Shown: piece by piece, positions 37,330-64,000 of the stretch | How positions within the stretch are numbered: position 1 is the stretch's first letter | Layout of the letters: each line of letters opens with the position of its first letter | The notes under the pieces: generated by a model | The model's database searches: none | The model's input: only the letters and a program-made list of their open reading frames with translations | What the model was told of the DNA's origin: nothing | Translations under genes and position numbers: made by a program | Origin: Blasia pusilla | Lineage: Eukaryota | DNA length: 64,000 bases | Direction of reading: 5' to 3' | Assembly (NCBI GenBank): GCA_050084515.1 | Contig: CM114271.1 | Span: 47,554,001-47,618,000 of the forward strand

Positions 37330-37627
37330 ACAACGAGAAACCACTGAGCTCCCACATTGTAGCGCTCTCAATCTCTTATTCTTGGCTCTTGACTTGCTAT
37401 AGGGATAAAGGGCCACTTCCCAAAGTGGAAAATCAACTCTACTCCTAATGGTAACTTAATTGAAATATTAAATTTCTCTTTATAGCCCCAAATGAGCCAA
37501 AACAAAGGGGAAACTTGCTCTCTCAGGTTATACATGGCAAGTCATCCTCGATCTCTTGAGGCTATCCTATGATATCCTTGAGGGCGCTCTACCATAAGCT
37601 TGTCAATCCATCCTAACATATGTGACA
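37330..37627 (-). repeat. Degenerate fragment of family W A repeat
   Basis: cttggctcttgac...cccaaatgagccaaaacaaaggggaaacttgct...ccatcctaacatatgtgaca parallels 28799-29053. Confidence 0.6.
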
Positions 37628-37659
37628 TACTAGATCATGTCATGTGGATGTGGTGTATG

Positions 37660-37826
37660 CTATTTGGTGTTAGGGGGATCCAACTACCAATTAGGAGGGA
37701 AATTGTGTGGATTGGTATACAAACATGAGTGTATTTTTTGTTTGAGTGGATCTACTCATGCGTTAGAAAGATTGATGTTGTGTTAAAGATGTGAGCATCA
37801 ATATAGATTGTGAAGCGATGTGTATG
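37660..37826 (+). repeat. Degenerate PPT region plus B repeat of the split-repeat family
   Basis: gttagggggatccaactaccaattaggagggaaattgtgtg...gcgatgtgtatg parallels 58937-59100. Confidence 0.6.
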
Positions 37827-38199
37827 AAAATGATATCATTTACAATTCTACACTCAATCCCTCATACATGTTCTCTTTTCCATTTACTTATCCTATCACA
37901 ATTTTACATCCTTGGCAAGACTTAAACCTAGATGGGCCTCCCACTAATTGGGATCCAAGGATCCTACCCCTCATAATACTTGAAGCTCTTCATAAGAAGC
38001 TACAATTTGCTACAAAAGGGTTCCCAACTCCCACTCCCCCGCTATCTTACATATTTAGAATACTAAGTGGACTTAGAAACTTCTGAACCTCATTTACAAC
38101 CTCTATTGGAGTGTTAGAAATATATCTTGTGAGAATGGAGTAGACATATCTAAAGTGTGTAGAATTCTACCAAAGTATAACAAAATCAACTAAGAGATC

Positions 38200-39000
38200 T
38201 TTATAATCAAGCGTTGTCCCCTCTAAGGCAATCCTAAGCACCATCCTCAACTTTCTTGATTTGAAATTGCCTTTAGAAAGTTAGGTCTTGTAAGTTTTTT
38301 ATTGGAGAAGTTCGACAATCCAACAAAAAACTTCTTGAAATCATATATCTCTTTCACGATAAGAGGTTTAGAGGAATAGAAATATTCAATAATCTTCTCT
38401 AATGAATTTAAACAACATAAATTCTTGTGACAAAGATGTCAAGAGAAATGACTAAACATTTGATCAATTTGATCATGAGTATGTCCAACCATGAAAAACC
38501 CAACTTTCACTTTATGGAATACCTCTTTCTCCACAAGCATATTAAGATACGCAAGTAAATGCTTATTTTCATTTCCCCGCATAATGTTTTCAAGCTGCAA
38601 GTAGAGGACAAGAGGAAGATTAGCTTCCCATTCTTTGATAATATTATGTAAAACTTTCATGGTCAAATTCATCTTATTTCGAATGTTCGGGTAATTCAAA
38701 AAAACCCTAGACAATGACTTCTTGTTGAAGTTGAGATATCGTACCATATGTACTAATATGAAATACTTCTTTTCCATATTTTTGGGCATACAAATGAAAT
38801 GAGGTAGTTCTGATTTCTTCGGATCCATCCCATAGATAACCACTCCAACATACTTTTCTAGAGAAGTGAATCATTTCTTGCAATGTTTCAAAAGTTTCTC
38901 CCTCTCTTTCATTTGTTGATTTCGGTGTGTAGCTAATGCGAACACATACTTTTCTATGCAAGAATATATGAACTTGTCAAACTATCTCATGATGAGCCCT
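38200..39000 (-). pseudogene. Degenerate DNA-transposon transposase fragment (Sola-like / DUF7869-type)
   Basis: GMDPKKSELPHF, LYLQLEN...NENK and FFMVGHTHDQIDQMFS motifs; frameshifted. Confidence 0.55.
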
Positions 39001-41379: not shown

Positions 41380-44300
41380 CTATAATAGGTTACAAATCGA
41401 GTTGTAAAGCATTAGGGTAATTCCGAACTGAGGACTGGTCTTCAACACTCGTGCGACACAGCCCTTGAAGAGAGCTCCTGGTCCCTCCTTTTGTAAGATC
41501 AACACAAAGCACTGCCAAGCATTGTCGTAGCGGTCCCCTCCATCTCCGACCTCCATCTGCACGCGCACATTGAGTGGAGTCAGTCACCTTAAAAACGAGT
41601 GAAAAACGAACGAACGGATGATTAAAGATGAGAGCAAGGTCATTTTGAATACAAGGTCCTATCCTTTGGGGATCAAGGACTACCGAGAAACCCATGTCTT
41701 CCAATCCAACTCTATGACCTTGAAAGACCACATTCCGAATCACACAAGATACCCTAGATCTGGTCACCATCTACTGGCGACTTCGGCGTTTCTGAGTATC
41801 GATGGAGGAACATAGCGTGGGGTGCCTCCATAACTTGGCAGGGGTAGGAAATGGAGATAGAGGTAAGTTCTCCACATCATCTAAACCCATTGTCCAACAT
41901 GGTCAGTTCACTACGATGTTGACTGTAAAAACTGCAGTTGGGAACTTACAAACATGTTCCCAAATTCCAAAAGTGTATGGCCGCAACTGTCAGATTGGTT
42001 CTGCTTCTACAACTCCTTCACGACTAGTTTCCTTCGCAGGCTGCAGCTTCTGAACCTCTCTACTGGCCTTCAATGGCCAGATGTGATCGGCCTGGTTTCT
42101 CGGCCTGTACGAATTTCATGCATAGTGCAGCAACGGATTCTTCAACGGTGAGAAGAACGAGAGAACTACCTGCAGCCTCGTCTTGATGACGTCGAGTGGG
42201 GTGACTAGAACAGTAGCAGGAATCGCGGCGAGGCACCCGGCCATGAAGCTTTGCTCGGGGTAAAGTTGTCTTATGAAGGTGTAGATGGCGAAGAAAATGG
42301 CCGTGCTAGGTATATCACGGGCCATCGTGACGCCAGATCCGTTGTACAGACCCTGCAATCCAAGCTCTTTGACGACATCCCAGGAGTTCTTTTGCTTTCT
42401 ATCCTTCGACTGAGTCTGTAGCCGAACCTTGACGATTTCCATGGGATTTGTGAAAACCACCTGAGAAAAACCTCCTCCTCCTCCCGCAATCAGCTCCAAC
42501 GCCCACACACCAACCCCTGGCAACTGGCTCTCCAACATCTCCATGAGGACTTCATTGACCGTGAACTTTATTGCCTGCAATCGACCAAACAACAAAACGT
42601 AAACACAAGTGATATCACAGGAGATATGGTCATCGACATCTCTGTGATTCTGCTGGGGACAACTCCTTTATAGTTTACTCTCATCCAGGGCGACAGAGGA
42701 ACCAACATTTGATGGAAATGCGTAAAGAAACTTGCCCCCAAATACCAACAATTTCCGACTGCAAGAGTTCATAGACATGACAAACTTTCTCCCCTCCTGA
42801 GAGAAAGCCGAACTATTTCACACACTCGAATCAGAGTATCAGCTCATTTATTTGCATGCCCAGAATAAGAGTTGCAACTGCGTTGGCTTTGAGTTTGCCA
42901 ATCTCTCGATGGAATACCAAAAGAAGTCGAGGTGGGTCCACCCTTCGAGCAACATAAGTGCTGAAATCGAAGAAACACGGAAACAGGAAGGAGAAGGGCT
43001 CATCGTCCCACTGAAGAGGAGATGGGTTGGTAGGGATTGGATCGTAGATCGATCGAGCGTAGAGGAATTGTACCTTCTCGGGGGCTATGCCAACAAGCTG
43101 AGGAACCAATCCACAGTAGAGAGAAGCCAGGCCTTCATCCGCAATGAGCTTTTTCAAGCAGTCCCATTCGTCCTTGTAGTGCGGCTCTTCTCCATCCTTC
43201 TGCGAGACCACCACAAACACAAACTTCAACACAGGTTTCTACGATCTTCCACAATCCACACACAGGAGACGTTGCAGCGCTCCTCCACTCGCTACTTCTC
43301 GCAGTGTCTGCTTCACAGCTTTGGCTTTAGAGTCTTCGACACTTCCAGATCCGAACACTGAACTCCCAAGGTGAAGTGCGTAAAGAAGTATTCGGGGGAC
43401 GGTGCAATTAAGAAGGTACATTCAAGCTCTGAGATCAAGAATACGTACAGGAGTCTGTGCTTGCATCCGTGTCTTGACGGTATCGAGCGGATAGACCAAA
43501 GTGGCACCCATTGCTCCTGCTACTCCTCCTCCACCAAAGTGCATCATCATTCTGGTCATGAGATTCATGCCAGGAACCGGTGCTCCTTGCAAAGCGGCCA
43601 TGGTATTCACGACGGCTGCTCCCCCCGCAGGCCCAACGCTTCGACTCGCGGCGGAGACAACCGTTCCGAGTGGCACGGCGGTCACCGCCACGAGGTCGGG
43701 GCCTTCCATCATCTCTGGTGCGATCCTCTGAGCGATAGAGTCGGACGATTTGGAGACCGCTGTTGTGGTTGAGCAGCTGACGATGCTTCTTTGTGGTTCG
43801 GGCGCCCCGGCGCCTTCCGTCACAGAGATGGCTATTGGGTACGGGGAGCTTTTGTCATGAGCAGCTCCATGGGCGGCCATAACAATCGTTGCAGCAGGGA
43901 TCTTGTCCTTCCCTTGGATCAGGTCTGTGGAGGAAACTTTAAATATGGGGACGAAGAGGGTTTCCGTCCGCTTTGTCGACACATTCTTCCCATCCTCGTC
44001 CACTTTGCTATCCAATTTGTCTTCGACGCCGACAAGAAGCTCCTGCCGAACGCGATCGTCGATCGACAAGTGAGTTACAGGCTGACCTATCTCGTCCAAC
44101 CAATCCCTTTGTGCTTTGATTTCCGACTGAAGCTGGTGCATCAGCTGGGTCTCGATACGCGTTTGGAAATTCTCAGAGATTTGTGATTCGGGCAACGCAC
44201 CGAAGGCTTCGCCGCTGGGGCTCGCCAGCGCAGATGAGCAGAGAGAAAGAGACAGACCTGCTACCGCCGCAGCTGTCGCGAATTTCCGTTGACACAGCTT

Positions 44301-44945
44301 CCATGAATGAGAGTTCTCCACGGCCAGGTTGTCGAGGAACCCGAAACCAGATCGTAGCCTTGGATAGTTCTCCTTGGGAATTCGTGCGTCTCTTTCATCC
44401 ACCATCCCGGCCACGCAGGGTCGAGAGTTGCTCGCTCTTCTTTTCGACCTTGCTGACCGTTTCTCCACCGGCCGACTGCCCTCAGACCACGCTGAGTTCC
44501 TAGCCGCCCGCGGAGTGCGCTGTTTCCCGGAAGATGTGGTTGATGATGCAGCGCTGTGTGTTCTCGGGCTGATGTTCTCCCCGGAAAACTGACTTCTAGC
44601 TCCGCATCCGCACTTGAAAGAATCGTAGCGAAACTTGTCTAGCGGTGCAGCGTAAAACCTCTCCGAATGTAGGTATGAGGTGCGCCCTTGGGTTTTGGAC
44701 CAACCTCTTGAAGTGGACCTATCGATGCAGAAGTTTTTCAGCATTCTCGGCTCTTTCTTGGCAATCAAGGCATGGTGATTAGGGTTCACAGATCGAGAGC
44801 CAAGCCCCACTTCTTTCTGGGAGAGGCCACTCGAGGTGCCGTAGATATTGCTCGCCTCCCACTTTGTAGACTTCTTCTTCACAATAGCGACGTCATGATC
44901 CACCGAATTCCTCTCGAAAACCAGAGGATGAACCAGAGCACTCAT
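41380..44945 (-). CDS. Mitochondrial carrier family (SLC25) protein, aspartate/glutamate carrier (AGC1/citrin)-like, with ~460-aa N-terminal extension; exons ~43449-44945, 43074-43199, 42170-42574, 41380-41556
   Basis: Three carrier signatures PX[DE]XX[KR]XR: YPLDTVKTRMQ, NPMEIVKVRLQ and TPLDVIKTRLQ. AGC-type peptides PQLVGIAPEKAIKFTVNE, ARDIPSTAIFF and ARVLKTSPQFGITL. GT-AG introns are in frame. Confidence 0.85.
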
Positions 44946-47294
44946 GATTCTTCCCAACCCTCCGACTTCACCTCATGAACTACCGCCCGCAGCAGAATAA
45001 CGCCGACGTGATTCGCGCCTCGGCGGAGGAAAAATTAGGATTCGATTTCAGTACAAATGTATTTGTGGGAATTCCAACAGTGCAGTAGCTACCTTCAGAC
45101 AGGCCGTGCCTTTCTCGGAGTCCCAGATCACCCACCGAGCGTCGTCCGAAGACAGCAGCAAATTGGATACCGAATGGAGAAGGCGAGGTCAGTCACCACA
45201 TTTCGTCAATTGAAGAAAGTGGGCTAGTCCCCAATAGCGGGACACGATATTGGTCTATCGGAGAATGAGCACAGTTCGCGCACCGACTGCGGGAAGAGCA
45301 CCTTCAAAATCCCTCGCTCGCTGTCGTCAATTGCCACCGGGAAGACGTTCCAGCTCTGACTGAGAAACTACCGCTTCTGAAAGACTTCTGAATTCCTCGA
45401 ACGCAGAAAAAATTGACTACGCTGTGCGATTCTCTGATCACGAGGTCCTCGCGATCCCAAAAAACCCAAACTTCTTTCTCTTGAACCCCGTGACGCTCTC
45501 CGAAACCGCGACCTTTGCAGAATCTTCTCCAATCTTCCTCCAAGCTCTCTCCGAGTGTACGTCGGCCTTTCAACACTGCAGTTCTAGTTCAACGAAAGCC
45601 ATCGACCGCAGCCACTGATCCCAATTTCCCGTCAGCACCGCAATTTCACACCTCATCAGAGCACCCGTCGCGTCTACCATCCCCGCAATATCTCAAAATC
45701 CATCTCTCGGACCGTCTCAAAACCCGGCGCGACAAGGACGACCGAAGACGGGCTTCCAACGTTGCGCGGCAGAATCAAGAAGAATCAGGGTCAAGCAATA
45801 ATCGCAACAGTTCATTGAGATTGACAGAGACTGGCAGCTCTCGAAGGGTGAAACTGAGAGAACTTGCAGAACCCTTTAAGAAAGATCTGCGTGATGTCAT
45901 CTATTGTGACAAAAGGGGTCCATTTCTCTGTATTGTACTTTCCGGAGATCGTTTCATCGTCCGTCCTCTTTCCCGTTCTCAGAGGGGGTGATGGGAGCCG
46001 TCAGATTTCGTCCATCGACGGTGAAAAGTCGTGGCTTCACCAGGTATTGACATCACTCGCGCACGGGCGCTCCAGATCCTTAGGAAGTCGAAAGTGAGCG
46101 CAACGCGTGGCACTGGTGTAGGAGATCTCCAGATCGGAAGACAAAAGTGGATGTCAGGATTTCGCCCGCGCCATCGCCAGCGCGTTAGTCACTGGCTCTC
46201 GCAGACGATAACCCGACGGCGACTCTCTACCCATCTCTCCGTTCCACCGTCGTCCTCATGACGGCGCAAGAGGAGCCGTTAGTCCCTTGTCGGTGACCCA
46301 CGCCACCTCGTAGGGAAATTCCCTCCACGTAGGCTTTTTCTTTCCCTTCTCTTTCCTTTGAAGCTTTCAGGGGCCTTTTCCATGACTAATGGAATTAACC
46401 TTCGAATTTGAATATGTCGCAGCTCCTGATTGGGCCTGGGCATAGCAGGAACTCCTTGTGAAACATGAGTTCGATTGTAGAATAAGAATAACGTGGAACG
46501 CTATAATGTAAAATAAAATAAATGCTATATTTGGTTTGTTTGTAAACCGTGTTCACGTTCAAGTCATGGGAAACCTAGGTTGCTAGAGGTCTTCTTTGTT
46601 GTTAGAGTTGGGGCCCATTGCCTTAGTTTAAATTTATTTATTTTTTAGTCATGAGGTGGGGTTGTTTCTTTAACTAAGTGCACATGCTCCTTTTTTTTCA
46701 ATTTTTCTCTGCGTGTATTTTCCCATCTTCTTTCTCCATGATCTTTCTTGGTCTTCTTTTTATGGCATCTTTCTTTGAGTGACCATCCACCTTGCTTTAC
46801 AAATTCACCTAGTGGCTAGAAAATATTTCTTATCTTCATGCTAAAATCTTTTTCATATGATTCGAGATATTCTCCACATAGAACACGTGAATTAAAGATC
46901 TAGAACTATCTCCCAACCACAACCAGAACTACTTTGATCCATCACAATTGAAGTGAGAGAAAATATTGGGAGCCATTTCCTTTTCTACGTTGGTTCTTCT
47001 AAAATTCACCAAATCACACTTATTTGCATTTTTTTTTCCCGTTTCAAATTGCTTTCTTTATTTTTAGAGCTACGTAGTTAAATTTCAAAAAATTGATTGC
47101 AAATAACACCTTCATTTTGCTAGACCCCATTACAAATAGAATATGTAAAAAACTTAAATCAAATGTGCACTAAGAAAACTTAGGAAAATAAGTACAAAGA
47201 TAGTTTGGATGAGTGTACTACTAAAATAAGAAATTTTGTGGTTAATTATTGATTTAAATTTTTAATTTCCATCATTTTTAATTTATTAATTATG

Positions 47295-47668
47295 CGACCA
47301 TGGATCACCTAGTCACCTACGCATATAAGTTATCATTGAAGAAGGTTGTTTTTAAGGGGAAGAGCTTTTTGGCTCTTCCCTAAGCTATAAGAGAGGGAGA
47401 GATGGCATTCTCAAGCCATCTTTCTCATGTTGGGTCTTTGAAGTAGCTCTCTTGCTTGGATTATAGTAGGAAGTAGGGTGTTAGCGCCTAGATTCCCTCA
47501 TAACATAGGGTGGATATGGTTCAATATAACGATGTAGATTCGACGAGGTATGTTGGCCATATGAGTCGCTTTTACTTTGATTTTTTTGTGTGATCTTGGT
47601 ATATATAGGTGAGTATATTTTGTTTGTATGTGGATCTACCCGTGTGTTGGGAAGATTGGTGATGACAT
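47295..47668 (+). repeat. Old A-B copy of the split-repeat family
   Basis: ggggaagagc...ctataagagagggagagatggcattctcaagccatctttctcatgttggg...gatttttttgtgtgatc...gggaagattgg aligns with ~59300-59670 across the A/B junction. Confidence 0.7.
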
Positions 47669-47849
47669 GCGCCTATTCTCTTGAACGTCGATCTTATGCA
47701 ATGCTAAAGCTTGTGTTTAGTAGGACACCCTCATATTGTTGATCTCCATCCAAACACACTACATTACATCTGGTTTGAGTCCATCAACCTTACATTTCCC
47801 TAAGTTCCTAACCCCTTACTTCCAACACAAACATGCGAGGAAGGAGAGT

Positions 47850-49258
47850 GCTTAGCTAGCGCTACAGTGTGGTCCATGACACATTTAAGGTGCTATCTAT
47901 TTGGTAACCCTTTCATACTTATCATTAATCATCAGCCGTTGAGATCAATGATAAGTCAAGATGGCTAAACCAGGATGCAGTTGGGTCGAGTCGCAACCCA
48001 TACTCGAGTCAGAGAGACAATACAGGAGTTTGACGGCACGGAGAGAGTGATGAGGAGATGGTGCCCGGTTGGCATGCATCTGCCTTCCTTTGTTGGTTGA
48101 CTACATCAAGTTAGCAGTAGGTGGTGACTTTAATGATGGGTGAGATGATGAGTCTCCATATCCAGAGGTCAATGAGGAGACAATGGGTAATCGTGATATC
48201 CATAATGACATGGAGTTTTTGGAGTTCCTACGTAATGACGTCATAGCAATGTATAGTGAGTGTTAGGGAGCATAATTGGATCCTATAGAGAGCCAAGAGG
48301 TTCAAGTAGGAGGGGACACACCTTTTTTGAATGTAGGGGGATGATAGAGTACGAGTGGTGCCTCATCTTTCCCAGCAAGCACATGTAGTGCGACATGCCC
48401 ACGAGGAATTGGGGCACTTTGGTATAAAGCGTCCTTATAGCTTACTCCACCTTAAGTATTGGTGGCGCAACATGCATACTGAGATTCAATAGTTTTTAGC
48501 CAAGGGTATGGTATGTGACCAAGTGCGAGCATCCTTCAATGCTCCCACTTCACAGTTGCATCCATGGCTTGCAGCGAGGACATTTGAGGGATTGAGACCT
48601 ACAGTTGCCATGGTTGGCCATGGGGTATTGCTTTAGTTGGCAGACATTCTTTGCATTGTTTGCGCCATACCTTATGCTCTATGGGAGGGAGTTGGCCTTA
48701 CTTATAGCTATTCAACGTAACATGGCAGAGGTTTTGGATCTTGATGACCTAGATATTTGGGTACAAGCATGTTCTCAGAGGGCGGAGCTTTTTTGTAGAG
48801 TTATGCCCATTGCATTTGAGAATTTAGCTATTGCTCACCATAGGGATACATTGAGGTATGCTTTCATTTGTGGAGGGGGTTATTGCCTAGGGATTAGGAT
48901 GCTCCATGTTGAAGATTATGTGTATTTACACCATGCGGAACCCATCACTATAGGACGCACGATTTTGTATGTGCGTGAGGTGTTATCGCATGGAGTGCTT
49001 ATTTTGGAGGGACAGTATGGTATGGTTTGGAAGGATCGTGTGCACAATTGTGCGCCATGTTATCTTCAAAATGTGGATAAGATAGTGGATTTGATCGTAG
49101 CAATGGTATGGGCTTGAGGTGTATGTTGCATGGATTTGCGAGGGGTGCAGTCACCAGTTGGTGTGTGATGGTTGTTCTCGAGGGTGACATACATCGTGTG
49201 TGACACCCCCTCTTGATGCAATTCCCACGAGACTATGCTTATGTCCTAGATGTGTATA
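47850..49258 (+). mobile_element. Older, internally deleted copy of the RNase H-integrase-PHD region of the same retroelement family
   Basis: Nucleotide similarity to 57030-58893. ORF 48605-49117 (LDLDDLDIWVQACSQRAELFCRVMPIAFENLAIAHHRDTLRY) matches 58072-58548, with a decayed PHD at ~49118-49258. Confidence 0.85.
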
Positions 49259-49930
49259 TGTCGCGACCCTCATAACCAAACAACACCAAATAGGCGCCAA
49301 GCGGAACATCAAACCACTAGTGGATTCATAGGGCCTAAGTCTTGGTTTACATTTGGTCCAGGTTTCCTAGTTCGCGATCATAAACGCGGGAAACAAACAA
49401 CTCAATTCCACGTTTCGTCTCTTGGACTTTTCCAAGAGACCTCTCCAAAGCGCAATCATAGTAGCATGATGCTTAATGTCACCATAGGGCGCACGATGAT
49501 CATGCTTTGGAGAGGTCTTTTGGAGAGGTCTCTTGGAAAAGTCCAACAGACGAAATGCGGAATTGAGATGTTCGTTTCATGCGTTTGTGGTTGGGACTAG
49601 GAAACCTAGACCAAACGGAAATCAAGACTTGAGATGAGTTGAGTCTAGGAAGGTTGGTTGCCAAAGAGGTGAGAACCAGTTTTGGAACATGAGTAGCGTT
49701 TGGGGATTTTGACTGTATTTTGGACCATAACATTTAGTTCCAAAATGCGTTTGGGAAAAATAAGATGGCATTGAAAATCTTATGTTGAGAAAATTCCAAC
49801 GCACCAAAAATCTTAGCAAACGCACAAGGATCGGTTGAGATATTGGCCGAAAATAATTGTGAGAGCAATTGGGTTGAGGGCCAATTTGAGGGGCCCAACT
49901 TTCTTTCCCTAAAGTTAGGGGAAGGGCGGG
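49259..49930. repeat. Family Z fragment containing a ~113-bp inverted repeat; abuts the left end of the main element
   Basis: Starts TGTCGCG. 49337-49450 and 49518-49630 are reverse complements of each other. Homologous to 23400-23870. Confidence 0.65.
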
Positions 49931-50376
49931 GATCAGCCAAGATCTATCGTGGATAGGGCGTAGGAGCCAGCAGACTATCTTGAGTGTAACTATGTCCCAC
50001 GACGTCGGATGAGGTTGAGGATAGGTCCATTGTGTGAGGAACTTCGTTTCTGACAACTTTCATGTTGAGGTCTTTTACAGCCGGGTGACTTGTTGACCAG
50101 GTCATCCACCCTTGGTAACTTGTGCGCACAGGTTACAAATGGGAGGGCTATTTTTAGGGTTTAGGAACCCTATATAAGAGAGGAAGATGGCTTTCCTAAG
50201 CCATTTTTCTCATGTTGGGCTGTTGGAGCACCTCCCTTGTATGTGTGTGAGATAGGACTAGGGTGCTAGCGTCCGGATTCCTTGATAGCACAGGGTGGAC
50301 GAGGCTCGATATGCCGATGTAGATTGAGGAGTGGAGTTATACGCCGGGTGTGACGTTTTTACTACTCTTTATTTTT
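49931..50376 (+). repeat. Repeat A1 (5' terminal repeat; first ~18 bp missing)
   Basis: Aligns with A2 from gatctatcgtggataggg to gtttttactactctttattttt. It is not followed by B. Confidence 0.9.
50171..50177 (+). promoter_or_regulatory. TATA box of the retroelement promoter in repeat A
   Basis: ccctatataagagagg is identical in A2 (~59385); ctataagagaggg occurs in the older copies at ~47386 and ~59993. Confidence 0.65.
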
Positions 50377-50390
50377 ACATGAGAAAGATG
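50377..50390 (+). other. Primer-binding-site position; self-complementary to 50202-50215 (putative self-priming site)
   Basis: ACATGAGAAAGATG pairs with CATTTTTCTCATGT (one G-U pair) 31 nt downstream of the TATA start. No TGG tRNA-type PBS is present. Confidence 0.7.
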
Positions 50391-51704
50391 TCAGGGGGCT
50401 GGTGGGAATTCGTTGTTTGCAGGTAGGCAAGCGAGTTGCCTTGGTCAGGAGCCCGTGGAGACGTTGGTTGGCGTCGTATTTGTCATTTTTTTTGTTTGCA
50501 AGGCCGTGGGCGGAAGCGCTGTCCGTTTTTCTCAAATTTTGTTGGTGCACGGGTATTGGGGACATCGGCAGAGTGTAGTACGGAGTGGGCGTCGGGTGTA
50601 CGCGAGTGAGGGTGTCGAGAGAGAGAAGAAAAGAGAGTTAGGTCTTGTAGCCGCTGGGGGCGCTGACGGGCGTGTAGGTTGGCGGGCGCGGACAGACGGC
50701 AGCCCATAGGGGTGCGGCCCCCCCCCCCGTGCGGGCATTTAGGGCCCAAGGGGCTGCATAGGGCCGCGTGCCAAGTTTCCCCCCTCCAACATGGTAGGAG
50801 TGGATGTGGTGGAGTTGTAGGGGCAACATGGTAGGGGCAACGTGGTTGCGCATGGGCACCGTGGTGGCGGGGAGGATGATGACCGACATAGTTGGACAGC
50901 GGACGTGGATGATGTTGGATGATGTTGAGCTACGTGGTTGAGAGTGCGGATGTGGTCGGGGTCATGTTCACGTGGGCGGACATGGCGTATGTGGTAGGAG
51001 TGGATCCGACATGGGTGAGTTCGGTTGCGCAGTGGAGAGTTTTGCGGGACTTAGTGTCTCACGAGCGTGGATGGGATTCGCGATAGCACTTTGTCGGTTG
51101 TTACGAGTAGGTTGGAGGACGACTCATTAGTTCTTCAATGACTGGGAATTGTGAGCGTTGTGATGGGGACACACGAACCTACACTGACGGGAGGTTTGAC
51201 GTGTTGGTCGAGGAGAGTGTCGTGTTGGGGAGATTGTCATATCACGTGGAGGAGTGCATGTTGATGGTATAGCAGGTTGGAGGGCGTGATCAGGTTACCC
51301 ATTCGAGTCCCTTTTCCTGCACTTGTCGTGTGTGATTGAGAGTGCTGGGTATCGGGTAGTAGCTGGTGCTAGGTGGGTGCAGTGATGGTGATGAGTGTAG
51401 ATTCTTTTCATGTGTACCATGTTGGTGGATATACTGGCGGTTGCTTTAGTAGGGTCGCGTGTATGACCCGAGAGAGTGTCGCTAGGTTAGGTGAGTCAGT
51501 TGGGAGGCTCATGGTGAGCCCGAGTGTTGAGTGTGCGTGAGGCCGGGTATGTCATCACGGGATTGATGTTAGCATAGGTGAGCTAGTGAGGAGTGTGGGA
51601 GACTTGCGGTGTGTCTGAGTGCTTGAGCGGGTGAGACAGGGTTTGTCATCACGGCGTTCTTCCAGGGTTCGGAAGAACGGGGTAGTGCGAGCAGTAGTAG
51701 TGGT

Positions 51705-53714
51705 GTGACACGCAGTGGAGTGAGATACCGAGGGGTTACCAGTGAGGAGCTACCTCGACATCCATCCGTGGCTGGATCGTCATCATTGGACCTTTGGGTC
51801 AGTGATGAGATCGCGCATGAGAGACGAGAGTACTTGGCAGGAGATGGACGACATGTGCCATCGGGGCATGCGTCGTTTCTCGGGTGCAGTGGGCACCATC
51901 GACTTAGATGATTTTATCCAGGAGGTCGACACATGGTGCGACTTCCAAGAGATACGGACCCCGACACCGTTCAACCCTTTCATGGCATGGAAGGGGTTGT
52001 TCCAGCACTTGGAGGGTCCTCCGATGGATGACTACATGGAGTTTCGATCACTATATTCAATAGAGATCGATGCTTGGAGGATGTATTGGGCTCCAGGGTA
52101 TGTGTCCACTAGTGGTCGCGAGGCATATGATGGGATTATGAGAGGAGAGAGACCCACACCATCAGCCCGGAGACTAGATGGAGAGGAGGGCAGTGAGACA
52201 GGCGATGTGGCACAGACCTCTTGTGGTAGAGGGCCACCCGGCAAAGCCCCACAAAGGGAGTTCTTCGGCGGTTGGGGAAGAGCTACCAGGGCGTACGCAC
52301 CGACAAGCTTAAGAGTCTACAGGATTTTCAGCGACGATCGGGTGAAAGTCTGAGAGAGGCATTCACACGCATGAGGAGGCTGATCATTGCTACGTTTGGA
52401 GTGATTGAGGCGCAGTCAATCCAGTATTGGTACGGGGTTCTGGACCGAGAACTACGGAGGAGAGTCCAAGATGCGGTGCTGATTCACATAGCGAAGCCCA
52501 CGTTGAAGGTGGTCTTTGAGTTGTCTGAGCGTATTGAGCTCAACATGAGTGAGGAGCAGGTAGTGACCGCTGGATTTTCTCAAGAGTCGACGGGTCCACG
52601 AGCGACGGTGACCCCACAGGTGCCACAGCAAGCACCAGTACCACGGGAGCGGGCCAGGGTGCCTAGAGAGTAGGGCGGGTACCGTGAGCCTATGAGGAAA
52701 CGACCCGTACCTACATATGTTGCCTAGCAAGGACCGATGTGGTCTTGATGGACGTGTGGAGGGGCCCATAGGCAGAGAGATTGCCCACAGCATGGAAGAG
52801 GACCACCAGCGCCTCTAATTTCTCAGGAGCCACAGAGGATGGCCCCACCACAGCACCAGTGTGACCATTGCCACAGATATGGTCACACTAGGGATAGATG
52901 TTTTGACCTTCGTCGAGGGGCACGTCCGGAGGTAGGCCGAGGGCCTGGGGGTGGTCATCTTGGAGGAGGTTGGGGAGTTCTTCCTGGACGTGGTGGTAGA
53001 GGACCACCACCAGCCAGAGGAGATGGAGCAGGAGCACAAGAGCCGACACTTCTCTTACGCATCGATTAGTTGGAGCAGAGGATTGCTGCCATGACGATGA
53101 TGCAGCTTAGGGAAGGCACGGAGCTACGAGCAGCTAGTGTGACTCCAACTTCTACCTCTTACCCTAACCCGGGTGAGGATCTCGCAAAAATGGGATTTAT
53201 GTGTAGTGCAGCCCAGGTTGAGGCAACTGCAATGGTGACTCGGGGTGCTGCGAGAGGCACCGAGCCATCGAGAGGTAGAGTTGAGATTGACCCATCAGAG
53301 GGGACCGATGGGCGGCAGGCCAGGGTTCCACAGTCATTCACATTGTCGGAGGCACTACGCACACCATCGATGGTGCCTCGACGACCAGCGGTGCCTATAG
53401 CTCAGACACCTACATCGACATCACGAGGAGTTGGAGTGACAACTCCTATGCCGGCTCGAGTGGAGTCAGTGTCGACCATAGTGTTGGAGGTGGCCACCAG
53501 AGTGAGTCAGACTCCACTATTTTCTGCCATAGAGTTGGCGACGTTGGGAGTTGGACCAGCTGAGGTGTTCCGGTTGGCCGCCACGTTGTGTGAGCGTGGA
53601 GAGATGACCGCTTCTTGTTCAGAGGTAGTTGAGGAGGTGGTGGACTTGCCCTCAGAGCCGGTGCTCAGGATGTTTCCCATAGAGTCATGGCATGCGGCGC
53701 GGCAAAGTTGGTAG
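51705..53714 (+). pseudogene. gag: gag (capsid-like region plus CCHC zinc knuckle), disrupted
   Basis: Begins with TRSG. Retrotrans_gag-like FQRRSGESLREAFTRMRRL, zinc knuckle CDHCHRYGHTRDRC at ~52860-52901, then an RG-rich tail. Frameshifts and stops are present. Confidence 0.75.
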
Positions 53715-53716
53715 AT

Positions 53717-54100
53717 ATGCCAGCTCGATCGGCCATAGAGCGAGCAGTGGTGACACCTGGAGTAGTGTTACTGGATAACCGAGCTGGAGTATTTCGCTTG
53801 GTTAGTCCGACGGGGACTGTATACCACCCGCAGCCCGTCCTACTTGATTCGGGAGTGCAACCCTTGATGTTAGGGAAGGCGGCGTGTTTAGCGTTGGGGT
53901 TACGGAAGGCCGACATTGAGCCTTGTCCCTTCCAAATACAGACCTTGATTGGGGGCGTATCACCCACTCAGTATATGACTCGACATGAGATTGTTGTTAG
54001 AGTCCAGCTAGAGCATGCAATGGATAGTGCTATGGTGCGCACACGTGCGATTACGACACCAGCTGAGTTGTACGATGTGTTAGTGGGGAGTACAATGTGA
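53717..54100 (+). pseudogene. Retroviral-type aspartic protease
   Basis: VLLDSGVQPLMLG active-site motif and YDVLVG (D-x-L-x-G) C-terminal motif. Confidence 0.75.
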
Positions 54101-54565
54101 TATCCCCTAGGATTCATCCTTGACTTCTGGGAGGAGACCGTTGCTTATCGGCCAGGATGGCGGTCAGGTGACGGCCGGATGAGTCAGTTACCCATGCAGT
54201 TTGCGGGACAAGGTGGTCGATCACTAGGCGAGTCTGTGACCACGTTGGCGGCTTTCACAGGTAGTGTTAGCTGGCCAGGAGAGTTGTTGGAGGGGAACGC
54301 ACATGCGGAGGATGTCCCAGTAGCGGATAGTCCCACGGAGAGACAGGCCATGGCGGGTGTCTCTTCCCATGTTGGCAAGGCCTCTTCACCATTGTGGGGT
54401 ACGACTCGAGAGCTACAGAGGAGTGACGACGACCTCGTGAGGCAGGCGTGGAGTCATGTTTTTATCCCAGAGCAGCGAGAGTCACGTGGCAATCGGGCTC
54501 TTGGAGTGGAGACATTGACCCCACTGGATACCACACCCGTTGTGTGGCAGTGCCTAGAGGAGGGT

Positions 54566-55515
54566 GTTAGGGTGTTAGATCTTTTCAGAGGGATTAGCAC
54601 CGGATTGGCTGCACTATTGCAGGCGGGCATACGGGTGCATCAGTACCTTTATGTGGAGAGAGATGAGACCGCACGGCAAGTATCATTACGTCACGTGGCG
54701 AGATTGGTCTAGAGGTATCCTGAGTTGTTGCCGGTATCTGCAGTACGGGGATATCAGCATACACTACATGCCGACATCTCTTTGGTGGGGGCGCAGGATC
54801 TGGATAGAGTTGGCACCATTCATTTGGTGATTGCTGGATGGCCATGTTAGGGTCATTCATCAACTGGCCGAGGATTTGGATTGCAGGATCCGAGGTCAGT
54901 GATGTTTTGGGAGATGCTGCGAGTAGTACGACACTTGCAGGAGAGTCAGATATGTTCTCCAGGGTACATTTTGGAGAACGTGCCGTTGCTGGAAGACACT
55001 CGTGCACGTGTGATGACGAGTGTACATCAGGTGAGGTCTTGCTTGGGACATGCTGTGTTGTTAGATGCAGCGAGAGTTGGGTCACGTGCCCATCGTCCAT
55101 GACTGTGGTGGACGAACCTGATACCATCAGAGGTACTGAGTCGAGCATACGGTGGAGTCCAGAGAGCACCACATCTCACAATGGATGCTATTTTGGGCTC
55201 AGGGCGTCGATCTCAAGTGGTGATACGGGATGATAGACCACCGTTGGCTATGGCCAATAGGATGGGGGAGTTGAGGGCAGCCTTACCTACGTTGGTGAGC
55301 TTCCCAACATCCCATGCCTTTCGTCAAGGAGGGCTAGGCATGATTTGGGATGAGGTGACCGGAGCATTGGAGGAGCCTAGAGCAGATGAGCGCAAACGCG
55401 CCATGGGGTTTGCTACCGGTACTACGGCGGTGCCAGGGATGACTGAGGCATCCCGGAGATAGGTGTTGGGGCAGGCGATGGACCTCAACTGTCTTACATG
55501 GATAGTCAGCCTAGG
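54566..55515 (+). pseudogene. C5 cytosine DNA methyltransferase domain, DNMT3-like, in frame with the protease
   Basis: Motif I VRVLDLFRGIS; II YVERD; III ADI; IV LVIAGWPC*GHS (Cys 54845-54847); V GLQDPRS; VI YILENV; VIII DAARVGSRAHRP*LWWTNL; IX ERKRAMGF; X RR*VLGQAM. All lie in one frame with four in-frame stops. Confidence 0.88.
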
Positions 55516-55899
55516 TATGGCTGAGCAGAGACGGATGCAAGTGTCATCCATGCCGTCACGTCCACGAGTTGGACCATTGCCTATAGGGTCTGTACAGGCA
55601 TTGGCTGGGGGCGAGACGAGGAGAGATAGGCACCCATGGACTTCTTGGGACGTCGTTCGAGCAGAGAGTGTGAAGGCGGCTAAAGTAGCACATGTTCATT
55701 TTTTGGATGTGAAGCATGGTGTAGGAGGTCAGAGTGGAGTGGCTGTTGCGGAGGTGGCTAGGGTTGCTACATAGCAACCAAAACCGGAGGTTGCGTCCTC
55801 TCCAACTGAGGTCACGATGGAGACTTGGGAGCCTGTGACTGGAGTCTCAAGTTGATAGGAGGAGAGCGACGGCGAGTTCATAGGTTTCTGAGAGGGCAT

Positions 55900-57250
55900 G
55901 TCAGTTGTTTTGCATTCAGTATGAGAGACTTGGGTACGCTAAAGGTCCCGGGATACGGATTGAGTTGGCTAGTGATACGCCGATCTTTCGTCGATCCTAC
56001 AGGTATTCTGATATGGAGCGAGCCTTGATTCAAAGCAAGAGTCAGGACTTGTTGGAGGCAGGACTTGTGGAGTTATCACATGGGGAGTATGCATTTGCCA
56101 CAGTCATGCCGGCGAAGAAGGATATGTATGGCAATTGGACGGATAGGCGGATGTGTGGAGATTACCGTCCTATCAACCGACAGACGAGGTCAGATTGGTA
56201 CGCCATGCCTACTCCTGAGGAGATCTTTGATGCGGTAGGGCATGCAAAGATCTTGATATTTTTAGATCTCCGTCTTGGCTATCATCGCTGGCCCTATCGA
56301 GTTGGAGGACAGGGAGAAGACAACATTGTGGGGGATAGATTGGTTCGGGAGAGATTGCTTGTATCAGTGGTGGTTCTTACCATTTGGGTTGAAGAACGCG
56401 CCTGCAGAGTTTCAAAGAGTGATGGATAGGATTCTGGCTAGCTTGGATTTTGTACGATGTTACATAGATGATATTCTTATCTTCAGTTCCACGATTGAGG
56501 AGCATGAGCGACACTTGGAGGATGTGTTTAAGCGATTGCGATTACATGGGTGAAGTTACATCCGAGCAAGTGCAGATTCTTTCAGGAGCAGATTGAGTAC
56601 TTGGGACACACCATATACCCGAGTGGGTTAGGCGTTGATGAGCGAAGGTAGAGGCTATTTGCAGATTCCACGCCCTCTGAGATGTGAGTCGAGTTCGAGC
56701 ATTTCTTGGACTGGCCAACTTCTATCGATGGTATGTCAAGGGTTTTAGTGCGATCGCAAAGTCTTTGACCTTGTTGACGAGACTTGATCAGGTTTGGTTG
56801 TGGGGAGATGATCAGGAGCGAGCATTTTAGGAGCTCAAGGACAGGTTGTCGTCCTCACCCATTTTACAGAGACCGGTTAGGGGTCGCCCATTCCAATTAC
56901 ATACAAATTGGAGCATGTTGGGTCTAGGAGCAGTGCTTACTCAGAGGGATGACGAGGAGAGGGAGTTCGTTGTGGCCTACGCGAGCCGATCGAACAACAT
57001 TGCAGAGGTGAAGTACAGCTCCTACGAGGGAGAGTGCTTGGCCGCAATGTGGGCCGTGGCACATTTCAGGTGCTATTTATTCGGCAACCCTTTCACACTT
57101 ATCACTGATCATCAGCCGTTGAGGTGGTTGATGGAGTCCGACAAGCTTACGAGAAAGCTTGCCAGGTGGGCTCTATTACTGCATGAGTATGAGTTTGAGG
57201 TGGTTCATAGGCCAGGTTGGCTAAATGAGGATGCGGATGGGTTGAGTTGT
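55900..57250 (+). pseudogene. pol: Reverse transcriptase and RNase H (Ty3/Gypsy type)
   Basis: RT: RMCGDYRPIN, LDLRLGYH, PFGLKNAPAEFQRVMD, YIDDILIFS. RNase H: LHTNWSMLGLGAVL, AYASR, YSSYEGECLA, LITDHQPLRWL, NEDADGLS. Confidence 0.93.
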
Positions 57251-57649
57251 AACCCATGTCCGAGTCAGAGAGACGATACAAGAGCTCGATGGCACGGAGA
57301 GAGTGATGAGGAGATGGTGCCCGGTTGGCATGCATCTGCCTATCTTTGTTGGTTGACTATGGCAGGTCAGCCACAGGTGATGACTGTAGCGGTGGGGTTG
57401 GATGATGAGTCTTTGGATCCGGAGGTTAGTGAGGAGGTGACAGGTGGTTGTGATATCCATGACGATGTGGAGGTTGTGGAGTTCTTGCGCACTGGCGTCA
57501 TTGCAAGAACACTGAGTGCTAGGGAGCGGGATCGGATCCTATAGAGAGCCAAGAGGTTCAGGTGGGAGGGGACTCACATTTTGCGGGTGTGGGGAGATGG
57601 TAGGATACGAGTGGTAACCCATCCTTCCCAACGAGCACCTGTAGTGCAA

Positions 57650-58893
57650 CATGCCCATGAGGAGTTGGGACATTTTGGAGTAAAGCGTACTTACAGCTTA
57701 CTCTAGGTTCAGTATTGGTGGCGCGGCATGCAACTGGGGTACAGCAATTTGTGGCTAGATGTATGGTATGTGACAGAGTGCGAGCATCCTTCAATGCTCC
57801 CACTCCGCAGTTACATCCTTTGCCGATTATGGGTTTAGGTTATCGGTGGAGTTTAGACTTTGCGGGACCTTTGCTATTGACGGGGCGTCATAATAGGTAT
57901 GTCCTGGTCATGGTGGAGCATTTCTCCAAGTGGATAGAGTTGGTGGCACTACCAGACAAGGCAAGCAAGGGAACAGCTTATGCGTTTCTAGATCGTGTGC
58001 TTAGTCACTTTGCTGCACCGACGGAGGTGTTGACTGACCAGGGTACCGAATTCAGGGGAGAGTTTTAGGCCTTGTGTGATCAGGGGTTGATAGATCACCG
58101 CACCACGTCCAGAGATCATCCTGAGGCGGATGGATTGGCGGAGAGAGTGGTACAGACGGTGAAGAGAGGATTGCGCAAGTATGGCTTGCAGCGGGGACAC
58201 TTGAGGGAGTGGGACCTACAGTTGCCATGGTTGGCTATGGATTATCGCTTTAGTCGGCACACATCCTTGGCATCATTTTCACCGTACTTTTGGCTCTTTG
58301 GGAGAGAGCCAGATTTACCTGCAGCGATTCGAAGTGACATGGCGGAGGTGTTAGATCTTGATGATCGAGATGTGTGGATACAAGCATGTTCTCAGAGGGC
58401 AAAAGTTTTTCGTAGAGTTATGCCTATGGCCTTTGAGAACTTAGCTATTGCCCAACATAGAGATACATTGAGGTACGCGACCATTCGTGGAGGAGGTTAT
58501 TGTCCAGGGATTAGGAGGTTTCATCCTGGAGATTACGTGTATTTATAGCACGCGGCACCCACGAGGCTAGATGTCACTGCAGGGCGCACGATCCTACGTG
58601 TGCGTGAGGTATTACCGACCGAAGTCCTCATGTTGGAGGGACGGGATGGTATGGTTTGGAAGGATCATGTGCGCAATTGTGCGCTATGTCATCTTTCGAA
58701 CGTAGATGGGACGGTGGATCCGAGCTTGGCAGTGGTACCTGCAGGCTTGAGGTGTATGTTGTGCGGATCTGCGAGGGGTGGAGCCACCATATTGGTATGT
58801 GATGGTTGTTCTCGAGGGTGGCATATGTCATGCCTGAACCCCCCTTTTGATGTGGTTCCCACGAGACGATGGATGTGTCCGAGATGTGTATAG
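57650..58893 (+). pseudogene. DDE integrase (HHCC + rve) with C-terminal PHD finger
   Basis: HEELGHFG...CMVC zinc domain; catalytic region WSLDFAGP, LTDQGTEF, ADGLAERVVQTVK; FHPGDYVYL; C4HC3 finger CMLC...LVCDGCSRGWHMSCLNPP...WMCPRC then stop at 58893. Confidence 0.9.
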
Positions 58894-58935
58894 GGTAGTA
58901 GGTCATGTCAGAGAGATGTGATATTTTCTATCTGG

Positions 58936-58970
58936 AGTTGGGGGGATCCAACTGCCAGCTAGGGGGGCGG
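58936..58970 (+). other. Polypurine tract AGGGGGGCGG preceded by a small hairpin (agttgg-ggggat-ccaact)
   Basis: Lies directly upstream of B1. The same arrangement is conserved at ~37668-37700. Confidence 0.7.
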
Positions 58971-59728
58971 TTGTGTGATCTCCATGTATATGTATGAGTT
59001 GATTTTTTTACATGTGTGGATGGACCCGTGTGTGGGGAAGATCGATGTTTTGTGGTGTAGATGTGACCAGCGATGTATGTTGTGTAGCGATGTGTATGCG
59101 CACGACAACTGTCTCATCTGAGTAGCCGATAGGCCGAGATCTATCGTGGATAGGGAGTAGGAGCCAGCAGACTATCTTGAGTGTAACTTTGTCCCACATT
59201 GTTGGATGAGATTGAGGATAGGTCCATTGTGTCAGGAATGTCGTTTCTGACAACTTTCATATTGAGGTCTTTTACAGCCGGGTGACTTGTTGACAGTCAC
59301 CGCCCCTGGTAACTTTGTCAGGCACGTAGGTTACCAAGGGGAGGACTATTTTTAGGGGAAGAGCCTTTTGGTTCTTCCCAACCCTATATAAGAGAGGAAG
59401 ATGGCTTTCCTAAGCCAATTTTCTCATGTTGGGCCGTTGGAGCACCTCCCTTGTATGTGTGTGAGATAGGACTAGGGTGGTAGGGTCTGGATTCCTTGAT
59501 AGCACAGGGTGGACGAGGCTCGATATGCCGATGTAAATTGAGGAGTGGAGTTTTAGGCCGGGTGTGCCGTTTTTACTACTCTTTATTTTTGTTGTGTGAT
59601 CTCCATGTATATGTATGAGTTGATTTTTGTACATGTGTGGATCGACCCGTGTTTGGGGAAGATCGGTGTTGTGTGGTGTAGATGTGACCAGCGATGTATG
59701 TTGTGTAGCGATATGTATGCGCACGACA
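58970..59728 (+). repeat. 3' terminal structure B1 (58970-59107) - AC - A2 (59110-59590) - B2 (59591-59728)
   Basis: B1 and B2 are both 138 bp with 6 mismatches by eye. B ends CGCACGACA and A starts TGTCTC. Confidence 0.92.
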
Positions 59729-59730
59729 AC

Positions 59731-60328
59731 TTAGTTAGCTGACTTGTAGAGTTCTACAGCGTTGACACATAGAATGTCAACAAGTTGTTTAGGTGTAACT
59801 TTTACCTGAGATGTTGGATAAGGTTGGCGACAGGTCTATTGCGCCATAAACATCATTTTTGAAGAAATCCCTATTTTGGTCTTAGTCAGTCAAGTGACCC
59901 CTTGATCGAGTCAACGGTCACCCGATGACCTGTGCATACAAATTACCATTTGTAGCTATTTTTGGGGGAAGAGCCTTGGCTCTTCCCAAGGCTATAAGAG
60001 AGGGAGAGAATGGCTTTCCCAAGCCATATTTCTCATGTTGAGCTTTTGGATCACCTCTCTTGCATATGTGTATTGGAACTAGGGTGCTAGCGTCCGGATT
60101 CCCTCATAAGAGAGGGTGGATGTGGCTCGATGTACCGATGTAGATTCGGGAGTGGAGTTGGCCGCGTGAGCCGTTTTTATTCTAATTTTGCCGTGTTGTC
60201 TCAATATACATGCTTGAGTTCATTTCTTGTATGTGTGTGGATCGACCTGTATATTAGGAAGATTGGTGTTGTATGGTGTGGATGTGATCATCGATATGGA
60301 TTATGTAACAATGTGTATGCGCACGACA
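59731..60328 (+). repeat. Diverged A'-B' copy of a related subfamily, directly abutting B2
   Basis: Aligns loosely with A2-B2 along its length (gggaagagcc...ctataagagagg...ctagggtgctagcgtccggattcc) and ends gtgtatgcgcacgaca at 60328. Confidence 0.8.
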
Positions 60329-62934: not shown

Positions 62935-63138
62935 TGTAATGACGTATTTCAAAAAAGAATTCACTTAAATGAGTGAAAGAAAGAATTGAAGTAGCTAATG
63001 AAAAACTATTTCTCGAATGGAGATGATGAGCACGATCCGTAAGGAATGAGTCAAACATGTCCCTTATAGCCCCATATATCTCTATGGCTAAGGGGACCAA
63101 TAAATTCCCATCATGAAGGAAACTATAGAGATGGGTCT
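62935..63138 (-). pseudogene. Possible non-LTR retrotransposon remnant (restriction-like endonuclease C-terminus)
   Basis: LVPLAIEIYGAI...FL resembles the F-x-P-x-A-x-E-T-x-G motif of RLE-type LINEs. It is short and truncated by the W insertion. Confidence 0.3.
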
Positions 63139-64000
63139 TGTCACGTCTCTTAGGATAGATCGGTGAGATCTAGTAGAGCGCCTTCGTGAGTAGCGGAGGA
63201 CAGGCTCAGTAGGTCAAGGATGACCTACTGAGGCCCCGGGAAACTTGAGAGAGTAGTTTTCCCCTTCGTTTCGGCTCATTTGGAGTCATATTGAAAAACT
63301 TACTATTTTAGTTAAGTACCATTTTGAGTATGTGATCAACTTTATATTTTTGGTAAGTGACCCTTGACCTCCTACATCAGGTCCAGAGCCAAGGAGTTGA
63401 CTTGGGAGCATAGGTTACCATGCGGAGAGCTTGGGAGAGGGGAGGTGTATACCTCAAGGGGAGAGACCTTGAGAGCTCATTCTGTCTTTGTTGAACCTCT
63501 TGGCATAAAGTGGCGGAGCCATGGTCCCTAGCGTTGAGAGTATAACCCAAGCCTCTCATTAGGAGAGTGGATTTGGTTTGACATGAGTGAGAGTGCAAAC
63601 ATGTGAGAACTATGGTGTTGTGAGAGAGATTGGATCTTATTTTGCAAAGAGAGAATGAGTGAGTGAGAGAGCTTCATGGTGGAGCTCGCTGGTCACTCAT
63701 TGGTTTTGCAGGTTGGGGATTGTATTCCTTGTTCACCGGTTAATGGGAGTGCTCACCGGAGCAAGAGCCGCTTACTTGTGAACATTTCCTTTGCCAATTT
63801 TTCATGTGGAAGAGTGGCGCGCGGAAGTGCTACCCAATTTTTAATAGGAATTGAGTATAGGGGCGGGTTGCCCCATGCCGGTGCTCTCGAGAGCATCATG
63901 TAACTTGCTGATTTGTATTTTTATAGGTTTTACATTTTTGTTGGGAGAAATCATCGCGGTAGCGCTACCAAATTTTGTGGAGGAGAAAGAGACATTGGGC
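63139..64000 (+). mobile_element. 5' end of a family W element: repeat A (63139-63644) followed directly by self-complementary PBS and internal sequence; continues beyond the window
   Basis: Starts TGTCACGTCT. It is the reverse complement of ~28545-29053 and diverges from that copy right after ggatctta, exactly where CAAAGAGAGAATGAG (63645-63659) begins. Confidence 0.75.

Follow-up and report, generated by a model that had tools for sequence, protein, structure and literature searches.

Split direct repeats are the textbook companion of tyrosine-recombinase retroelements, and identical long terminal repeats (LTRs) that of DDE integrases. A locus in the genome of Blasia pusilla raises the question of how an element carrying a DDE integrase can come to have split repeats. 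The window analysed here is a stretch of 64,000 nucleotides (assembly GCA_050084515.1, contig CM114271.1, positions 47,554,001 to 47,618,000 of the forward strand), and all coordinates given below are window positions. The element in question, at 49931-59728, has the order A1, 8.6 kb of internal region, polypurine tract (PPT), B1, AC, A2, B2. This order is shared by its whole family. Its origin may lie in a two-LTR circle opened by the integrase at a junction inside the repeat.

Split repeats and a self-priming site

A reading made from the letters of the window without database searches (the sequence-only reading) had placed two copies each of A and B, and repeat finding and BLAST returned all four at the same positions. 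All lie on the forward strand. A1 (49931-50376; also supported by alignment and reads) is the sole 5′ repeat and passes straight into internal sequence, with no B between. At the 3′ end, the purine run AGGGGGGCG (58961-58969), which we take as the PPT, abuts B1 (58970-59107), followed by an AC spacer (59108-59109, also seen in joint reads), the complete A2 (59110-59590) and B2 (59591-59728), which ends in GACA. The adjacency of PPT and B recurs in a diverged copy at 37690-37703. BLAST aligned A1 with 59128-59590 of A2 at 88.3% identity over 461 columns (E 1.9e-168), and a global alignment gave 92.6% over 443 aligned bases plus 23 gap columns. B1 and B2 are 95.7% identical (E 4.5e-62). The Kimura two-parameter (K2P) distances, 0.079 for the A pair (443 sites) versus 0.045 for the B pair (138 sites), rest on too few sites to decide whether both pairs are of equal age. 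The TGTC proposed as the start of A is found in A2; A1 lacks it, as the first ~21 nt of A are missing there.

Two junctions within the 3′ repeats had been pointed out, and both were verified in the sequence. Inside the repeat, the inverted ends stand head-to-head as CACGACA-AC-TGTCTC (59101-59115), with AC separating ...CGACA from TGTC..., and A2 runs gapless into B2 as TATTTTT|GTTGTG at 59590/59591. The AC following B2 was also considered as a conserved spacer and rejected, since those letters belong to a 5′-truncated third A (A3, described below). Likewise, B2-AC-A3 was rejected as a repetition of the B1-AC-A2 junction because A3 aligns only from about position 6-8 of A.

A TATA box, TATATAA, lies in A1 at 50172-50178 (+), with the same motif in A2 at 59386-59392, and may belong to a promoter. 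The site 50202-50215 (+), a putative RNA 5′ end, begins 30 nt past it. Its 14 nt are complementary to the 14 nt that abut the end of A (50377-50390, +), a predicted primer-binding site (PBS): the latter is the reverse complement of the former at 13/14 positions in A1 and at 14/14 in an older copy, A0. In a sister family, Y, the 15 nt after its A repeat (A_Y) pair with the equivalent site at 14/15 positions, and at 15/15 in a solo copy, although the sequence is unlike that of the main family. None of 1000 shuffles reached any of these values (13/14, 14/14, 14/15 or 15/15), and minimum-energy folds pair the primer site with its complement. The complementary pair fits the signature of Tf1-type self-priming, which is known from the plant Tcn1 and TAR lineages (Neumann et al., 2019, PMC6317226). 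The PBS is thus read as a self-priming site next to A and not as a tRNA site. A tRNA search detected 0 tRNA genes in the window. The motif TGGTGG, 23 nt (main family) or 33 nt (family Y) after A, was dropped as a candidate tRNA-type PBS, as it does not abut A and the two families differ after its 6 nt.

Since the self-priming site follows A, the end of U5 would be the end of A, and the transcript would start inside A. Thus, the edges set by reverse transcription are the end of A, which borders the PBS, and the start of B, which borders the PPT, whereas the TG...CA termini of the integrated form are provided by the beginning of A and the last letters of B. The two registers do not coincide, just as had been claimed from the edges. 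In an ordinary LTR element, both LTRs are identical, with their outer ends serving as the integrated ends and their inner ends lying next to PBS and PPT; this element departs from that plan.

The layout in public reads and in related copies

Reads were compared with positions 49880-59112, a reference containing a single A, the internal region and a single B. From a raw whole-genome run of the same species (X20), about 1 read in 100 was used. The end of A was joined to the start of B in 489 X20 reads, 407 of them exactly from 50376 to 58970. Joints from the end of B to the start of A were found in 280 reads, of which 215 match the window through ...ACTGT and 173 run from 59112 to 49936; in 100 of these 173, identical 20 letters fill the start that A1 lacks. 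The A|B junction also occurs in contigs of two further runs of the species (52 in X1, 3 in X4), and a run labelled as a second species (X7) holds one contig for each junction type (A|B and B-AC-A). Joints from the end of B to the PBS and from the PPT to A, which are expected of ordinary A-B LTRs, were absent among the 15 of 208 joints listed, the weakest of which resting on X20 reads alone comprises 41 reads.

The summed depth in X20 is ~950-1600 over most of the internal region; therefore, the family is high-copy. Depth is 2115 at 50314 in A but 932-1134 over 58816-58910, the 3′ end of the internal region, as would fit two copies of A for each internal region. Neither A|B nor B|A junctions exceed a number of about one per internal region, which argues against long arrays. 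Depth ratios for B were left unused because the last ~40 nt of B are common to family Y. Based on these results, we conclude that the A...B-A-B layout is a property of the whole family and is neither damage to this copy nor a misassembly.

One part of the element departs from this depth. Over 50496-51111, a GC-rich stretch of ~600 bp, the summed depth is about 87 and 25 compared with ~1000 on either side, and no joint skipping the stretch was present among the 15 listed. Either this copy alone has the stretch, or it is a hypervariable leader.

Relatives in the window show the same parts in other states of preservation. Three further places had been named where B follows A. Two are on the forward strand as proposed, at 47295-47664, with B truncated, and at 59731-60328; the third, 28413-29053, is an A-B unit as well, but on the minus strand and of the diverged family Y. 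The first of these, A0-B0, was found by repeat finding and is an older contiguous fragment truncated at both ends. The second, A3-B3 (59729-60328, +; BLAST and alignment), is also older, shows 75.5% identity to A2B2, lacks the first ~5-7 nt of A, and ends in GACA followed by unrelated DNA. Between A0-B0 and the element lies a relative, X, of which a 3′ internal part from RNase H to the PHD finger (47840-49258, +) is ~79% identical to 57026-58892; the 175 nt between B0 and this part have no match to the element. The PPT-like end of X (49913-49930, +), recognised by comparison with 58940-58969 and 37670-37702, stands directly against A1. Hence the suggestion that a repeat family, Z, had overwritten the left edge of A1 does not hold: Z (49337-49896) does not touch A1, and the end of X lies between them.

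A third copy (37628-37835, +), 71% diverged, consists of the end of an internal region, PPT and B, after which DNA unrelated to the element follows with no match to it. Alternative forms besides the full layout had been predicted, and this copy may be one. Family Y is represented by a solo A-B at 28413-29053 (-; BLAST and sequence), TGTCAC...CACGACA, with AATT on both sides, the one case of a 4-bp flanking duplication. By BLAST, only the last 45 nt of B align between the families (93%; 59068-59107 versus 28413-28456), and the first ~40 nt of A also align loosely; the shared end of B and start of A would fit conserved integrase-binding ends. A 5′ end of family Y is present at 63138-63659 (+), with flank, A_Y (63138-63643) and its own self-priming site (63644-63659), and contains no B. 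Among the diverged relatives in the window are copies that start with TGTC(A) or finish with (B)GACA against unrelated DNA.

Coding content, protein relatives and neighbourhood

The internal 8.6 kb, from A1 to the PPT, are GC-rich and contain many stops and frameshifts. The domain order on the forward strand is that of Ty3/gypsy elements: gag, protease, a Dnmt3-like DNA methyltransferase (DNMT), reverse transcriptase (RT), RNase H, DD35E integrase and PHD finger. The DNMT sits between protease and RT; apart from it, the protease-RT-RNase H-integrase order of Ty3/gypsy is present. A frameshifted gag-like region (51724-53066, +) has a zinc knuckle recognised by eye and a tblastn match to a copy at 33965-35559 (-). 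The aspartic protease region (53633-54097, +) was identified from its LLDSG motif and gave no Pfam match. The frame 53633-55771 encodes protease and then C5 methyltransferase and has 5 in-frame stops, 4 of which fall within the Dnmt3-like C5 cytosine methyltransferase domain (54572-55489, +; PF00145, E 9.4e-08); the score was obtained with X written at the stops of the frame. It is followed by a frameshifted RT with YIDD (55884-56550, +; RVT_1, E 5e-16), a Ty3-type RNase H (56831-57190, +; RT_RNaseH, E 1.1e-33), and an integrase with an H2C2 zinc domain and rve core (57545-58545, +; Integrase_H2C2, E 4.1e-05; rve, E 2.5e-11), which has one in-frame stop and one frameshift. Its catalytic D, D-35-E residues are all kept (spacing counted by eye). 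A C-terminal PHD finger (58753-58887, +; PHD, E 4.7e-11) completes the set. Scanning 41 forward frames of at least 45 aa and 24 reverse frames of at least 70 aa gave no tyrosine recombinase (Phage_integrase) at E up to 1, and the Pfam scans of the element frames gave no chromodomain match. Consequently, the element bears an integrase and is not a tyrosine-recombinase element, as the sequence-only reading had held, although that account was incomplete in its domains, leaving out the Dnmt3-like domain and the PHD finger as well as the self-priming.

The closest proteins are hypothetical proteins of Marchantia polymorpha, with 59% identity over 95% of the protease-DNMT stretch and 68% in the DNMT part. 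The next relatives are environmental polyproteins and one polyprotein from Closterium sp. NIES-53, whose DNMT region shares 40% identity over 311 residues. For the Marchantia relative, the best matches among solved structures are DNMT3A and DNMT3B. Many relatives have RVT, RNase H, DNA_methylase, H2C2, rve and PHD in long open frames. The position of the DNMT varies: in the Closterium polyprotein, as here, it precedes RT; three metagenome polyproteins have it between RNase H and integrase; and in the Marchantia relative it lies near the C-terminal end of a 1278-aa gag-protease-type protein. This variation implies that PHD-bearing Gypsy elements either carry the domain in two placements or captured it twice. 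No Klebsormidium nitens protein was named among the 10 and 27 matches of the protein searches. A metagenome scan with one relative (P0007) found one locus (L001; 35% identity, 5.9 kb) without direct repeats, which is uninformative. Seven viral-contig (IMG/VR) loci, in which only ~65-145 DNMT residues matched, were taken for phage methylases and set aside.

The reads also show how far this copy has decayed. At 55839 and 55843, 855/908 and 801/900 family reads, respectively, have one base fewer; this copy has private frame changes just upstream of RT. Within 49880-59112, C>T or G>A accounts for 1769 of the 2837 places at which at least 5% of X20 reads differ. This fits deamination decay at methylated cytosines; the element encodes a DNMT of its own. 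Judged from its sequence, the element is a decayed copy of a high-copy retrotransposon with Ty3/gypsy order, belonging to the streptophyte Gypsy-DNMT3 lineage.

Several features of the neighbourhood belong to other subjects. The gag-like pieces of a related element at 33965-35559 (-) are probably the interior of a family Y copy, with the start of A at 37627 and about positions 255-514 of that A missing. Repeat family Z, inserted upstream of the element, contains a palindrome, with arms at 49372-49449 and 49519-49596 that are 86% complementary; a relative of 81-82% identity at 23416-23812 lies beside a PIF1-helicase-like fragment (23676-24044, -), and the family may be Helitron-related. Just downstream of the B of the third copy, a DUF7869 open reading frame (38442-38870, -; E 3.3e-29) is probably a piece of a different transposon. 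The repeat cluster is bordered by host-type genes (1658-8884 and 42119-44972): WD40 pieces on the minus strand, a zf-UBP/UCH ubiquitin hydrolase (6432-8884, +) and a mitochondrial carrier gene (42119-44972, -). Of the words sampled from the 3′ repeat region, 15-28% were present in air-metagenome runs (X6, X9-X11), from which nothing is claimed.

Possible routes to the split repeats

How could such an element arise and replicate? Since the primer site follows A and the PPT precedes B, an ordinary two-jump cycle must place B-AC-A LTRs at the two ends of its product, of which the integrated copies are a circularly permuted form. Their outer ends correspond to the two halves of the internal junction, and in view of these ends and of the A|B junction, a circle opened at the internal junction fits best. 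In this route, the RNA would start ~30 nt after the TATA box in A1 and end in A2, and Tf1-like self-primed reverse transcription would give a linear cDNA with a B-AC-A LTR at each end. Joining of the blunt cDNA ends would produce a 2-LTR circle and thereby create the A|B junction TATTTTT|GTTGTG. The integrase would then cut after CA on both strands at one pre-existing internal CGACA-AC-TGTCAC junction; by our own derivation, cuts staggered by 2 bp would leave 2-nt 5′ overhangs equivalent to 3′-processed retroviral ends. Integration with a short target duplication would result in A-internal-B-A-B, the only permutation that would keep both an upstream promoter and a downstream terminal repeat, and which alone would be able to replicate again. 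Both the circle intermediate and the cleavage of the internal junction by the integrase are inferred from the arrangement of the sequence. We consider the whole chain, with A-internal-B-AC-A-B as the normal form, made via self-primed cDNA, 2-LTR circle and internal integrase cut, the best explanation at hand, and judge its chances of being right or wrong to be about equal. A wider version is put forward more tentatively, with somewhat less than an even chance of being correct: throughout the streptophyte lineage the circle would be obligatory, a DDE integrase would cut a palindromic att junction inside each LTR, and the scar would be fixed in every copy.

Several points weigh against this explanation. 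The circle, the linear cDNA, the transcript start and the poly(A) site rest on inference. Of the 208 joints, 15 are listed, and of about 5290 loose-end rows, 24. The first bin of A has a mean depth of ~1110, not double the internal depth, perhaps because A1 is diverged. Sequence after the end of B is variable (2192 and 948 reads), but this is confounded by family Y, as 2294 and 1077 reads enter the shared last ~40 nt of B from Y-like sequence. Short reads cannot separate A-internal-BAB from ABA-internal-B, nor show the ends of single copies. For the copy itself, the target site duplication is unreadable as the flanks are other repeats: the 5′ end is truncated against the older relative X, and the 3′ end abuts the older A3-B3. 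Finally, two neighbours each require an extra deletion: after A0 come B0 and next internal sequence, an order not predicted for a 5′ end, and in X the PPT-like tract leads into A (from position ~22) and not into B.

Other routes to the same order were considered. The first is DIRS/PAT-like: the circle would be closed by template switching, with the internal B-A as a bridge, and not by end joining of a completed linear cDNA, and the integrase would still open it at B|A. Indeed, the same repeat layout, A1-internal-B1-A2-B2, is described for PAT/Ngaro-type elements and SymbioDIRS-Dnmt3 (PMC5890265), and the authors of that 2018 study termed the repeats of the Klebsormidium element KnitGypsy-Dnmt3 DIRS-like. 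However, a self-priming site at A and a PPT at B are hallmarks of the ordinary two-jump LTR cycle, which ends exactly at the A and B edges that are found fused at 59590/59591; furthermore, no tyrosine recombinase was found and the RNase H is Ty3-type. We therefore regard this route as unlikely.

Homologous recombination is a rather more improbable source of the layout. A one-LTR circle (A-internal-B, closed through B-AC-A) or a cDNA could cross over in A with a resident solo A-B, and the integrase would make no cut at an internal site; by our own derivation, one crossover within A produces precisely this order. Resident targets do exist, as the copy lies inside or against the older relatives A0B0, X and A3B3. 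Nevertheless, an A-B unit would be needed at every site. Judged from depth, there are hundreds to thousands of copies, and variable, AT-rich sequence follows the end of B. In addition, the origin of the TG...CA ends and of the flanking duplication would be left unexplained, and the DD35E integrase is conserved in the lineage.

Head-to-tail insertion, with A-internal-B as the unit, bounded by short inverted ends, and the next A-B as a separate, internally deleted unit that the integrase would have placed 2 bp from its end, appears very improbable. The third copy offers a possible A-internal-B end and solo A-B units exist, but a transcript from a promoter in A could not restore the upstream A without a downstream A, the junction counts of at most about one per internal region are better explained by a fixed unit than by random tandems, and the 2-bp spacer contrasts with the 4-bp duplication at the family Y solo. 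Least credible of all, to the point of being nearly dismissed, is that ordinary identical LTRs are the rule and that nesting, deletion or misassembly deprived this copy of its 5′ B and supplied B2. Although its 5′ end is truncated against other repeats and its 3′ end abuts A3-B3, the 489 A|B and 280 B-AC-A joint reads contradict a merely damaged copy. Raw reads and contigs from independent runs hold both unusual junctions in abundance, the joints listed include none of those expected of ordinary LTRs, and the same split occurs in family Y and in the third copy and is reported in Klebsormidium (PMC5890265).

Several known systems bear comparison. A circular intermediate is an accepted idea for PAT/Ngaro-type elements, which share the split direct repeats of the DIRS order; unlike this element with its H2C2 and DD35E domains and no recombinase match, they have a tyrosine recombinase and no DDE integrase, and the TG...CA ends and the 4-bp duplication at the sister-family solo set it further apart. 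In IS3/IS30-type circle junctions, inverted ends are abutted a few bp apart and cut by a DDE enzyme, which yields a linear molecule competent for integration. The same holds for the proposed circle, as for palindromic LTR-LTR junctions that foamy virus and HIV-1 integrases are reported to cut (PMC1180852, PMC1905944). In the IS and retroviral systems the junction that is cut is the circularisation junction, whereas here the cut would fall inside each LTR and the A|B scar would persist. With Tf1/sushi and plant Tcn1-type elements the element shares a primer site, predicted here, that abuts U5 and is complementary to its own transcript start, not to a tRNA (PMC6317226). Unlike this element, they have ordinary identical LTRs. 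A PHD finger is present here and no chromodomain was matched.

The nearest precedent is KnitGypsy-Dnmt3 of Klebsormidium nitens, described by De Mendoza et al. (2018, PMC5890265) as an LTR Gypsy element with Dnmt3 in Pol and, in the Fig. 4c legend, as having DIRS-type repeats and Gypsy domains. Like it, the present element has a Dnmt3-type methyltransferase in Pol, A-coding-B-A-B repeats and a streptophyte host; it differs in the host itself and in its nearest named proteins, from Marchantia and Closterium, and the likeness rests on the published description. To call the layout foreign to integrase-bearing Gypsy elements, as the sequence-only reading did, was thus too strong (PMC5890265); its observation is confirmed and its interpretation partly supported. 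Section 9 of the main text and the Fig. 4c legend of that paper offer no mechanism for the repeats. In the literature searched, which left most subscription journals outside, the name KnitGypsy was confined to this 1 paper, no second paper reported split repeats on a DDE-integrase element, and no explanation of the layout was found, the register shift, the internal att-like junction and the self-priming being unreported there. A 2026 preprint mentions ‘streptophytes (Gypsy-DNMT3)’ (10.64898/2026.05.21.726589). As far as the published description goes, the architecture has a precedent in KnitGypsy-Dnmt3 and is of a known but unexplained kind.

What is new is that a second, land-plant-like host has a high-copy family in which this layout is standard, together with the exact junction sequences, a covarying self-priming site that fixes where reverse transcription must end, and an internal head-to-head TG/CA junction with the geometry of a 3′-processed end. 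A DDE-integrase family with split repeats breaks the textbook pairing, and LTR finders that assume two identical LTRs will mis-annotate such families. How an integrase would insert a permuted cDNA has become a directly testable question, with the nearest relatives in Marchantia, a laboratory model. If the wider, lineage-wide version of the circle route is true, the lineage would be a retroelement counterpart of IS3/IS30 circle-junction transposition, and split direct repeats would have arisen independently of tyrosine recombinases.

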